This document shows positions 28,651 through 30,622 of a stretch of DNA of 64,000 nt, piece after piece (position 1 is the stretch's first letter; every line of letters starts with the position of its first letter). This DNA is from an uncultured Candidatus Saccharibacteria bacterium. GTDB lineage: Bacteria; Patescibacteriota; Saccharimonadia; Saccharimonadales; UBA7683. The stretch covers positions 46,589 to 110,588 of the forward strand of contig CAZWBG010000001.1 of assembly GCA_964632215.1 (NCBI GenBank), given 5' to 3'. Both the position numbers and the translations under genes were made by a program. The notes under the pieces were generated by a model. The model had not been told where the DNA came from, made no database searches, and saw only the letters and a program-made list of their open reading frames with translations.

Positions 28651-29202
28651 ATGGGCGCATATCGAGACGAACAACTTTTTAGACAAATGGATGCTCGGGC
28701 AGCTGGCCACGATGATGGGTACCATCAGGGCATTGCTACTGCAGCAATGAGACTCGGTATTACCCCAGAACTCGTAGAAGATCTTGCTACTAGAGATCTT
28801 CTAATACGAACCGCCCGACTACAAGAGGTTGCCGATGCGGTTGGTGCACTACTACTTGAGGCCGAAGACCGATCCAATATTTTGCGCCGTGGTACTGCTG
28901 CGCAAGTGGCCCTTGATCTGGTCGCCTACCAACTTCCAGTTGAGGCACCTGATGACAGTTGCTATATTAACCACCCTGGCTATAGATTAGAACTTAATGA
29001 GGGTGTAGCAACAGTTGCGTCGGGTGCTACGGGTGGTGGTATGTATGGTTCGTGGCATTTTGAATCTTTATGTCTTTTGAGTCCAGACTGGGTATCCGAA
29101 CATATGCAGTCTCTTGGTATTGAGAGGAGTATGGACTTTTGTGGGCAAGTTGCTGAAGAGATTTGTCTAAGTTTGAGTCAGGAGAGCGAGCAAAATGGCT
29201 AG
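28651..29202 (+). CDS. orphan hypothetical protein inserted between atpA and atpG
   Basis: 183-aa ORF. Starts 9 nt after the atpA stop, with AGGA upstream. Its stop (29200-29202) overlaps the atpG ATG (29195) by 8 nt. About 51% GC over its first 120 nt versus about 43% for the atpA start (hand count). No motif recognised. Confidence 0.6.
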   Translation: MGAYRDEQLFRQMDARAAGHDDGYHQGIATAAMRLGITPELVEDLATRDLLIRTARLQEVADAVGALLLEAEDRSNILRRGTAAQVALDLVAYQLPVEAPDDSCYINHPGYRLELNEGVATVASGATGGGMYGSWHFESLCLLSPDWVSEHMQSLGIERSMDFCGQVAEEICLSLSQESEQNG

Positions 29203-30061
29203 TACTCAACAGCTGCGCCAGCGAATCACTAGCGTAAAGAATACAAAGCAGATTACCAAAGCTATGGAGATGGTTTCGGCTTCTAAGCTGCGTCGGGCGC
29301 AAGAAGCTGCTCAAAAAAGTCGGGAATTTGCGAAGATTGCCAGGCAGATTTTGAGTCGTATTCGCCAACTAACGAACGTAGACAAACATCCTCTTTTTGC
29401 AAAACGGGCAGTTAAGAATCGACTCATTATTGTAGTTGCATCAGACAGAGGCTTAGCTGGCGCTTACAATGCTAGCGTTCTAAAGTTTTTCGCTCAAGAG
29501 CTACAAAAAGACATGAAAACAGGCATCATAAGCCATGTTATTACTGTTGGCAAACAAGCTACTACCTTCTGCGCTAAAATCTCCGGACTAGAAATTAGAG
29601 CAGCGTATCACGATTTAATAGACCAACCTACGGCAGAAAACCTGCGACCAATTCTAAATGACGCATTAGTTGGTTTTCAGTCCAGTACATTTGATGCGGT
29701 TGATATCGTCTACACAGATTTTATTTCAAGCATAAACCAGAAGCCAGCCATTGCTCGAGTGTTGCCGGCAGCGTTTGAAGAAATAAAAATTCCGATTCAC
29801 CTGGAAGAGGCAACTTTTGAACCATCACCCAAGAGGGTGCTCGAGGGAATAACCGAACGCTTTGTAGAGGTAGAAATGATGCAGTACCTCTTTGAATCTT
29901 CTGCTTCTGAGCAATCTTCTCGTATGATCGCCATGAAGAACGCAACCGATAACGCCAACGATATTGTAGATGATCTTACACTCGCACTTAATAGTGCCCG
30001 ACAAGCGGCTATCACCCAAGAGCTCGCTGAAATCACTAGCGGTGCAGAGGCAATATCATGA
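29195..30061 (+). CDS. atpG: F0F1 ATP synthase subunit gamma
   Basis: MASTQQLRQRITSVKNTKQITKAMEMVSASKLRRAQ; C-terminal NSARQAAITQELAEI. Confidence 0.9.
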   Translation: MASTQQLRQRITSVKNTKQITKAMEMVSASKLRRAQEAAQKSREFAKIARQILSRIRQLTNVDKHPLFAKRAVKNRLIIVVASDRGLAGAYNASVLKFFAQELQKDMKTGIISHVITVGKQATTFCAKISGLEIRAAYHDLIDQPTAENLRPILNDALVGFQSSTFDAVDIVYTDFISSINQKPAIARVLPAAFEEIKIPIHLEEATFEPSPKRVLEGITERFVEVEMMQYLFESSASEQSSRMIAMKNATDNANDIVDDLTLALNSARQAAITQELAEITSGAEAIS

Positions 30062-30480
30062 GTGTAAATCACCAGGAGGAACTCTTCCCTATTGAAGGTT
30101 TGCAGGACATCCCCAAAGAGAGACGTGAACTCATGAGAACATTCATAGAAAGTGAGCTTCTGGGTAAGCCTTTTGTAGACGACGAAGATGTTGAGTGCAT
30201 GGTGATTGTTATGGCAATAGCTGCGGAGGATTTGTCATGCGCATTGGCTCATGCACGGGGTGAATTGGAATCTGAAGATTTTTGTTCTGAAGTAATTGTA
30301 GGAAAACTTAATACAGTCGCAACTGGTCCGCTTGTCTTTAGTGTTAATGAAAAGTTTCCTGATAAGAATCGTGTAGACGAAGAGGTTGTTGAAGCGCTGC
30401 TAACACAAGCTGCAGAGATTGCCAGAGAAACTGTAGATACTGTAAGTCTAGCGAGACTTCACGCGGAGGCCATTTTATGA
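30058..30480 (+). CDS. orphan acidic hypothetical protein inserted between atpG and atpD
   Basis: 140-aa ORF. ATGA start/stop overlap with atpG. Followed by a palindromic repeat and then atpD. No motif recognised. Confidence 0.55.
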   Translation: MSVNHQEELFPIEGLQDIPKERRELMRTFIESELLGKPFVDDEDVECMVIVMAIAAEDLSCALAHARGELESEDFCSEVIVGKLNTVATGPLVFSVNEKFPDKNRVDEEVVEALLTQAAEIARETVDTVSLARLHAEAIL

Positions 30481-30504
30481 GCAGTTTTAATAATCCAAAC
30501 TGGG

Positions 30505-30592
30505 TCACTGCTTTCGCAGGAATGACGAATCCGGAGATACCTTCATCCGCCGTCATTCCCGTGCAGGCGGGAATCCAGACATACCTTTCATC
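30505..30592. repeat. small palindromic (REP/MITE-like) element with an ATTCCC-N8-GGGAAT core
   Basis: ggaatgacg (30519-30527) pairs with cgtcattcc (30551-30559). Core attcccgtgcaggcgggaat at 30555-30574. Direct repeats gaatccggagataccttcatc (30527-30547) and gaatccagacatacctttcatc (30571-30592). Confidence 0.6.
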
Positions 30593-30622
30593 ATATTTCA
30601 AAGCAAGCAAAGGAGAACAATA

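Follow-up and report, generated by a model that had tools for sequence, protein, structure and literature searches.

Why should the operon for the F1Fo ATP synthase, among the most conserved gene arrays of bacteria, carry additional open reading frames (ORFs) between the genes of its F1 sector? The question is raised by a 64-kb stretch of DNA from an uncultured Candidatus Saccharibacteria bacterium (contig CAZWBG010000001.1; the window, by which we mean the whole stretch analysed), where an ORF that we call X separates atpA from atpG and a second, Y, separates atpG from atpD. The original prediction, made from the letters alone, had drawn attention to both as orphans and had proposed either lineage-specific F1 accessory or regulatory subunits or selfish passengers on an essential transcript. 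Our comparison of atp loci leads us to think that the two junctions flanking atpG, or slots (slot 1, atpA to atpG; slot 2, atpG to atpD) form a lineage-wide insertion hotspot and not a one-off, because ~40% of Saccharibacteria carry unrelated, fast-evolving small genes there. X and Y are probably accessory passengers; what would keep them in the operon is descent, together with the cost of disrupting it, and not a need of F1. We favor this explanation, with some reserve, because these two junctions harbour numerous ORF families that are unrelated to one another, and one sister lineage has no insert in either. The function of X and Y would then be accessory and not specific to F1.

We fetched 160 atp loci with atpG as bait from GTDB species representatives and metagenomes, a sampling that is independent of X; L-numbers below are labels of these and the other compared loci. 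Operons were called Saccharibacteria-like when their atpG was at least 42% identical to that of the window (n = 53 after de-duplication) and were compared with operons of other phyla (n = 87). A gap of at least 200 nucleotides (nt) separates atpA from atpG in 12/45 Saccharibacteria-like operons (27%) and in 6/77 operons of other phyla (8%); for atpG and atpD the counts are 15/44 (34%) and 3/79 (4%). At least one of the two gaps is this large in 17/39 Saccharibacteria-like operons (~40%), as against 7/72 elsewhere, and both are in 6/39 and 1/72, respectively. Two of the exceptions among the other phyla, L022 and L024, carry Saccharibacteria labels. Nearly all large gaps are filled by co-oriented ORFs packed stop-to-start against the atp genes. 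The earlier view that insertions in this operon are unusual thus holds across bacteria generally, but not within Saccharibacteria.

The occupants of the two slots that could be assigned to a family are listed here.

L017, 6906-7298, after atpG: 23S-rRNA intervening sequence (IVS) protein (PF05635, 23S_rRNA_IVP), E = 1.4e-34
L024, 1173-1532, after atpG: 23S-rRNA-IVS protein (PF05635), E = 5.7e-15
L085, 491-886 (= L116, 3048-3443), before atpG: 23S-rRNA-IVS protein (PF05635)
L014, in a slot: HXXEE membrane protein
L090 and L172: family G2a, E = 9e-25
L003, L168 and L176: family G2b, E = 2.5e-17 to 1e-6
L168 and L172, directly upstream of atpD: family G2c, E = 4e-13
L006 and L089: family G2d, E = 6e-39

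Remaining occupants, X family aside, are singletons, and among 276 cross-lineage pairs of occupants none was alike beyond chance (best p = 0.003), save near-identical duplicate loci. The 23S-rRNA-IVS proteins are found in three or four separate Saccharibacteria lineages and at both junctions flanking atpG. Apart from these and the membrane protein, occupants are small, soluble and acidic, with a median isoelectric point (pI) of 4.83 against a window background of 5.73.

Accessory-gene hotspots between core genes are a known kind of locus; what is new here is a hotspot inside a coupled essential operon, with one family fixed at the alpha-gamma junction. Like core-gene integration hotspots, the atp slots combine a fixed position with variable, mosaic, lineage-specific content that consists mostly of hypothetical proteins. 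Unlike the usual ones, they lie within a translationally coupled essential operon; their cassettes are single small ORFs that lack promoters, integrases and defence domains, and their content appears to be inherited vertically with fast divergence rather than exchanged in recent times.

In the window, the operon and its inserts are arranged as follows.

24993-25835, + strand: atpB, F1Fo operon gene
25879-26109, + strand: atpE, F1Fo operon gene
26136-26687, + strand: atpF, F1Fo operon gene
26684-27064, + strand: atpH (delta), confirmed by Pfam
27076-28641, + strand: atpA (F1 alpha), bordering slot 1 on the upstream side; Pfam ATP-synt_ab, ATP-synt_ab_C and ATP-synt_ab_N
28640-28650, + strand: 9-nt atpA-X spacer, with a Shine-Dalgarno-like AGGA overlapping the atpA stop (direct sequence reading)
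28651-29202, + strand: X, an acidic protein of 183 amino acids (aa; pI 4.4), predicted to be helical, from an unnamed family of Saccharibacteria
29195-29202, + strand: ATGGCTAG, the 8-nt overlap of X stop and atpG start, its TAG drawn from atpG codons 2-3 (GCT AGT)
29195-30061, + strand: atpG (F1 gamma), between the two slots; Pfam ATP-synt, E = 4.8e-86
30058-30480, + strand: Y, 140 aa, acidic (pI 4.3), predicted helical, in slot 2; no relative detected
30477-30623, + strand: 48-aa ORF bridging the palindrome, gene-called on Logan contigs
30500-30578, no strand assigned: palindromic element resembling repetitive extragenic palindromes or miniature inverted-repeat transposable elements (REP/MITE-like), core CGTCATTCCCGTGCAGGCGGGAATCCAG, an inverted repeat with 28-nt arms
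30623-32008, + strand: atpD (F1 beta), bordering slot 2 on the downstream side and provided with an AAGGAG Shine-Dalgarno sequence of its own (ORF list and sequence)
32117-32542, + strand: atpC, F1Fo operon gene

The ORF coordinates bear out the gene order first described, atpB-E-F-H-A-X-atpG-Y-atpD-atpC, and the sequence confirms its junctions: X starts 9 nt past the atpA TAG, with the AGGA 7 nt upstream, and ends in the 8-nt overlap with atpG, and the start of Y overlaps the stop of atpG (ATGA). The third small ORF, of 48 aa, had been overlooked. It begins in an ATGA shared with the stop of Y and ends in a TAATG shared with the start of atpD, and an unbroken series of coupled ORFs runs from atpA to atpD. 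Sites resembling promoters or terminators are no more frequent between 24500 and 33000 than in shuffled sequence. Co-transcription and translational coupling, as originally proposed, fit this anatomy of a Shine-Dalgarno sequence and a stop-start overlap for each ORF with no excess of such sites, and X and Y would depend on the atp promoter and on coupling for their expression. Contigs identical to the window locus are present in three Logan runs, SRR16797976, SRR16797977 and SRR16797980 (100% DNA identity for the copies of X and Y). The closest relatives of the window atpG are all from metagenome-assembled genomes of Candidatus Saccharibacteria; compared with clade relatives, the window atpA is 85-89% and the window atpD 87-92% identical.

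Are X and Y genes at all? We regard both as genuine protein-coding genes because of the rarity of such frames in shuffles, their codon log-odds and their positional base composition. A stop-free frame of the observed length arose in 12 of 200,000 shuffles of the first gap (X) and in 35 of 200,000 of the second (Y). In a codon log-odds model trained on 26 long ORFs outside the operon, X scores 0.242 and Y 0.306 bits/codon, compared with 0.241 +/- 0.045 for long window genes and -0.03 for spurious nested ORFs, and the five alternative frames of X and of Y all score negative. Both show the coding pattern GC1 > GC2 >= GC3 of GC content by codon position (X 0.67, 0.44, 0.35; Y 0.63, 0.34, 0.34). 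X had been noted as GC-richer than its surroundings, and a small excess does exist (0.49 vs 0.44-0.47 in atp genes). However, the excess is confined to codon positions 1 and 2, and GC3 is below that of atpA and atpG, so that there is no signal of foreign DNA and a foreign GC content for X was rejected. The suggestion of acquisition by recent insertion likewise gains nothing from GC or codon usage. The 48-aa ORF is a different case: its codon score is weaker (0.177; antisense frame 0.047), which makes it a probable by-product of the repeat, one through which the chain of coupling stays intact. Its peptide reads ...AGMT...VIPVQAGIQ...

One could suppose, nevertheless, that the inserts are non-functional spacer ORFs, in which inserted DNA (MITE-like repeats, gene remnants) is kept free of stops for the sake of coupling or polarity. 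The gaps are filled exactly, from upstream stop to downstream start; the 48-aa ORF does the same across a palindrome with its weak codon score; remnant mini-ORFs of 10-21 aa follow an ATGA at the atpG stop in L084, L085 and L015; and Y has no relatives. We consider such an origin very unlikely, since X and Y have fully gene-like codon usage and positional composition, the motifs of the X family survive synonymous change, and in that family the proportion of nonsynonymous differences (pN) is below that of synonymous ones (pS). The same is true of family G2d, with pN 0.33 vs pS 0.80, which indicates purifying selection on a fast clock. Deletion would also be the simpler way of dealing with useless DNA, as in L084.

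The comparison across genomes changed the standing of X most. An exhaustive phmmer (HMMER) search of 1.84 billion representative proteins returned 16 matches, ~13 of them full-length and colinear (179-191 aa, 26-36% identity, E 4e-24 to 8e-4), and X scores 219 bits against the resulting family profile. The family alignment (A1) shows a conserved N-terminus, MGAYRDEQxF, a C-terminal block, W[VI]..RL..LG[VI]ER[DS]..FC..VA, and the invariant residues M1, G19, G23, V86, A87, W147 and G156, which form no catalytic His/Cys/Asp pattern. All 13 members are acidic (pI 4.1-4.7). In the first eight codons synonymous positions vary and the peptide is kept, which points to constraint on the protein. Pairs of family members are 24-44% identical in aa sequence, with pN 0.37-0.57 below pS 0.71-0.88 in every pair, all of them saturated. 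Estimates of dN/dS (nonsynonymous over synonymous substitution rates) for X and Y themselves are uninformative, as other copies are identical in DNA and X-family pairs are synonymously saturated. The label of orphan given to both ORFs is therefore lost for X; for Y it stands so far, provisionally, no relative having been detected.

Where the context of an X homologue is readable, X lies within the atpA-to-atpG interval in 11/11 cases; this conserved synteny, together with pN < pS (purifying selection), is what the cross-genome comparison advised in the original prediction has yielded. The order is directly atpA-X-atpG in the window, L164, L168, L171, L172, L175, L176 and L177, and the interval is shared with further small ORFs in L166, L170, L173 and L174. 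The host operons have atpG genes 48-72% identical to that of the window, a span which implies that the family is old within the phylum. Two subfamilies defined by indels match the grouping based on atpG, as fits vertical descent. We see X, on these alignments and contexts, as belonging to an old, apparently vertically inherited and unnamed family that has been kept in slot 1. One member is annotated 'hypothetical protein' by NCBI. X has no relevant match in Pfam-A or NCBIfam at E <= 1, and the 13 family members gave just four scattered single-member matches, each above E = 0.007; the family matches nothing among PDB sequences, PHROGs or PADLOC, and X nothing in phage records or JGI metagenomes. 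A known atp-associated family, an outcome foreseen in the original prediction, was matched neither in Pfam or NCBIfam nor among subunit profiles. That X might be a positional orthologue of the ORFs in the atpA-atpG gaps of L001 and L002 was considered and rejected (p = 0.017-0.028, not significant when corrected; hmmsearch and hhalign negative).

These searches also hold a lesson of method. A word-indexed search of 5.8 billion proteins had found only X itself and so called it an orphan, a false negative given the homologues found by exhaustive HMMER, and the indexed search with the family profile recovered 2 members. 'Orphan' verdicts from word-indexed searches are unreliable for families below ~36% identity.

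The junction between X and the next gene is as constant as its position. An 8-nt overlap of the type [ATG/GTG/TTG]-G/C-CT-AG (CTGA in L166) ends 8/8 X-family genes compared, and it is kept in L170, L173 and L166, where another cassette and not atpG comes next. In these loci the cassette after X has an atpG-like start: L170 1003-1377, ATGGCTAGT (MASQ...); L173 1080-1307, ATGCCTAG; L166 1288-1686, ATGCCTGA. The junction motif may have been duplicated or re-used upon cassette insertion. In L174, two adjacent small ORFs (295-720 and 745-1008) that follow atpA and precede the X-like gene are paralogous (E = 5e-5), a tandem duplication of a cassette inside the slot.

The window's own clade, in which atpG genes are mutually 70-80% identical (other loci reach at most ~60% where measured), illustrates the turnover of the slots. 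Its members (L001 and L090 being the same) carry the following inserts.

Window: slot 1, X; slot 2, Y, then the 48-aa ORF
L168: slot 1, X; slot 2, G2b and G2c
L172: slot 1, X; slot 2, G2a, a 173-aa ORF and G2c
L090: slot 1, an unrelated 140-aa ORF; slot 2, G2a
L002: slot 1, an unrelated 148-aa ORF; slot 2, a 253-aa ORF
L084: slot 1, none; slot 2, none

L084 is close to the window (atpG 71%, atpD 91% identical). Its atpA ends in ENDG and the stop inside the ATGGCTAG overlap with atpG; in the insert-free operons L084 and L011, atpA itself ends in NG or DG before the stop within the 8-nt overlap. Between atpG and atpD, L084 has 59 nt that hold a 20-aa mini-ORF remnant. In insert-free operons the atpG stop is TAA, followed by AAGGAG and then the atpD ATG, which shows to be wrong the idea that an ATGA at the atpG stop is the ancestral atpD start. 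The ATGA occurs with a downstream cassette or with what is left of one, a mini-ORF (L084, 20 aa; L085, 21 aa; L015, 10 aa), and because of this tie L084 has most likely lost its cassette. Since most Saccharibacteria and the sister lineage L084 do without them, X and Y are dispensable among sister lineages, and the ATP synthase has no need of either.

Cassettes evolve fast. L006 and L089 have atpG genes 89% identical (dN 0.075) and slot-2 ORFs 52% identical (dN 0.43, 5.7 times faster), and in L168 and L172, where gamma is 78% identical, X is 34% identical. Taking each family with the atpG of the same pair, identities are 52% and 89% for G2d, 41% and 78% for G2c, 39% and 78% for G2a, 34% and 78% for X, and 26-37% and 59-66% for G2b; the divergence of X is ~five times faster than that of gamma. 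No compared family includes cassettes that are anomalously alike between distant hosts. Thus, cassette divergence tracks atpG divergence, with no sign of recent transfer.

This tempo bears on the proposal that X and Y are selfish mobile cassettes, either resembling homing endonucleases or carried as MITE-borne cargo, that spread through the atp junctions. In its favor, presence/absence polymorphism is seen between conserved genes, highly conserved flanks could act as arms for homologous recombination, and the window, L001/L090 and L022 all have REP/MITE-like palindromes in their slots. But cassette divergence scales with that of atpG, codon usage is ameliorated to the host, and neither X nor Y contains an HNH, GIY-YIG, LAGLIDADG, transposase or integrase domain in Pfam, matches PHROGs, PADLOC or phages, or, for Y, plasmids. 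The palindrome, moreover, is present once in the 64-kb window. We therefore think selfish spread highly improbable. Of the 'selfish passenger' in the original prediction, the passenger part is supported by the unrelated families that share the junctions, and the selfish, homing or mobile part gains no support, as matches to nucleases, phages, plasmids (searched with Y) and defence systems are all wanting; the statement that the two ORFs have no recognised motif agrees with the empty Pfam and NCBIfam scans.

The REP/MITE-like palindrome reported after Y is real. Its 28-nt arms (30500-30527 and 30551-30578) are 71% complementary with a perfect inner stem, and its RNA fold has a free energy of -42.7 kcal/mol (z = -3.4); Rfam gives no match between 24000 and 33000, the palindrome included. 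A related palindrome, CGTCATTCCGTACTTGATACGGAATCCAG, stands at the 5' edge of the L001/L090 atpA-atpG gap. L022 has five copies of a related repeat, TGTCATTCC...GGAATCC, in 13 kb (2933-2958, 3456-3481, 5720-5753, 6321-6346 and 10771-10806), of which one falls into the atpA-atpG gap and another inside the coding sequence of atpG. The latter may be an in-frame insertion in the style of Rickettsia palindromic elements, because the atpG that bears it is ~25 residues longer than usual. Like those elements, the window palindrome is short, inserted and read through as an ORF (the 48-aa ORF); it differs in having a single copy in the window and in carrying neither X nor Y. The junctions do receive small insertions; the palindrome lies apart from X and Y and offers no explanation of their origin.

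Could X instead serve the enzyme in whose operon it lies? X, and perhaps Y and the other occupants as analogues, might be a lineage-specific F1 accessory factor, in the form of an extra subunit, an assembly chaperone for alpha or gamma, or a regulator or inhibitor of hydrolysis, encoded next to gamma for a fixed ratio. X is kept between atpA and atpG in 12/12 X-family lineages, usually with the 8-nt atpG overlap; the family has conserved motifs under purifying selection; and slot occupants are mostly small acidic soluble proteins. In addition, the delta subunit is unusually short. The window delta (OSCP) has 126 aa; its match to the Pfam OSCP profile, which is 172 positions long, is confined to 60-169, and by hhalign it aligns only to the C-terminal domain of full-length delta; delta measures 118-137 aa in 34/37 Saccharibacteria-like operons. 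The alpha-binding N-terminal domain of delta seems to be missing or unrecognisable phylum-wide, and with so short a delta the stator architecture may be atypical.

Against an F1 factor stands the distribution of X: no member of its family is found among the ~52 other Saccharibacteria-like operons sampled by atpG, including L090 and L002, which have different ORFs, and L084, which has none. Proteins that have no connection with ATP synthase, namely 23S-rRNA-IVS proteins and a membrane protein, occupy these slots as well, and very rapid evolution is atypical for a subunit of a core complex. Profile comparison of X and Y with every F1Fo subunit and with a 40-sequence profile of the delta N-domain gave hhalign probabilities of at most 0.8% (positive control 97%), and on this result X as a replacement for the missing delta domain was rejected. 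Neither ORF matched the Pfam/NCBIfam models of AtpI, zeta subunit, IF1, Atp11 or Atp12, and the absence of a Pfam match excludes membership of X in the AtpI, zeta, Atp11/Atp12 and IF1 families at the level of sequence, provided that Pfam-A models them. Taken together, an F1 accessory factor appears possible but doubtful to us. A bolder version, that the X family and the acidic slot proteins are Saccharibacteria-specific F1 partners (chaperones, a stalk component or hydrolysis inhibitors) which evolved along with the truncated delta and whose turnover tunes an ATP synthase possibly running in reverse in these epibionts, strikes us as unlikely.

Known cases offer partial parallels. Small accessory genes and factors of ATP synthases include atpI, atpZ/atpR of N-ATPase operons, the epsilon C-terminal domain and the alphaproteobacterial zeta subunit, and further regulators or assembly factors of F1 are IF1, cyanobacterial AtpTheta and Atp11/Atp12. 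Like X and Y, these factors are small, co-encoded or co-regulated with ATP synthase and in some cases lineage-restricted. However, they lack sequence or profile similarity to X and Y (by Pfam, NCBIfam and hhalign only); the operon-encoded ones lie upstream of the Fo genes rather than between F1 alpha, gamma and beta; and X and Y are dispensable among sister lineages and, with X as the measure, evolve ~five times faster than gamma. The 23S rRNA IVS proteins (PF05635; four-helix bundles, bAvd-like) resemble X and Y as small ORFs within highly expressed essential transcription units, and in other Saccharibacteria (L017, L024, L085/L116) they occupy the very same atp junctions. They are basic, though (pI 9.2-9.5), whereas X and Y are acidic and match PF05635 in no search. 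Mycoplasma F1-like ATPase clusters (types 2 and 3) likewise combine F1 alpha/beta-type genes with extra lineage-specific proteins in a reduced genome. Those clusters are separate paralogues with fixed extra genes; here, the operon is the canonical F1Fo one and its inserts are variable and dispensable.

For Y, the evidence is of a different kind. Y has no relevant match in Pfam-A or NCBIfam at E <= 1, none in PHROGs, PADLOC, phages, plasmids or IMG/VR, and none among ~60 other junction ORFs and the family profiles (phmmer, hhalign); the word-indexed search of 5.8 billion proteins found only Y itself. Its similarity to the L024 slot ORF is nominal (p = 0.026, uncorrected), and that to the IVS-protein profile is not significant by hhalign. 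Since the same type of indexed search missed all homologues of X, the orphan status of Y is best treated as provisional. The nearest relatives of the window have atpG genes 70-76% identical, and at that distance a gene with a rate slightly above that of X would no longer be recognised. Y could be a diverged positional orthologue, a replacement or a new gene.

We return to accessory passengers as the probable identity of X and Y. In this model, the atp promoter would drive transcription of X and Y, and their translation would be coupled, stop to start, with that of the F1 genes; accessory genes of a compact genome would secure expression through residence in an essential operon that is highly expressed. 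With the Shine-Dalgarno sequence and the overlapping stop and start that each cassette brings or keeps, the atp gene after it would still be translated. A cassette that has entered the operon would be positionally trapped, and then diverged, replaced or deleted according to lineage. Several observations weigh against this model. The position of X is strictly conserved down to an atpG identity of 48%, and its stop is embedded in the start of the next gene, both as would be expected of a dedicated F1 partner. The size, acidity and solubility that unrelated occupants have in common may mean that they are functional analogues and not arbitrary passengers. No mobile-element machinery or signal of recent transfer accounts for the arrival of cassettes. 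Finally, single-sequence AlphaFold2 models of X and Y have mean confidences (predicted local distance difference test, pLDDT) of 40.3 and 46.1 and are unusable; the four helices predicted in the Y model carry no weight at that value.

Searches of the full-text literature brought up no account of inserts in the atp operons of Saccharibacteria or Patescibacteria. At least one family has kept its place at the alpha-gamma junction from far back in the history of the phylum. If X and Y are passengers, they show a way in which ultra-small genomes gain and exchange accessory genes, namely by inserting them into operons that are essential. Should X bind F1, the ATP synthase would have a new component, and this in a phylum with a truncated delta and a poorly understood energy metabolism.

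Small ORFs are also seen at other places in and near these operons. L168 has three between atpD and atpC (9392-10115), L176 has one between atpE and atpF (2302-2499), and the atpD-atpC gaps of L002, L006 and L008 measure 260-500 nt; the operon is thus porous beyond the flanks of atpG. In the window, four consecutive small ORFs of 118, 92, 112 and 183 aa lie on the minus strand at 22737-24830, between the conserved Grx/HTH genes and atpB. No Pfam match is recorded for them in the Logan gene calls, and they have no counterpart in L002, where the HTH gene abuts atpB. GC content at 24150-24750 is 0.52-0.56, against a window average of 0.45. Lineage-specific small ORFs are thus not confined to the atp operon. 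Saccharibacteria have been described as highly syntenic, with unique genes that are mostly hypotheticals (10.1101/258137).

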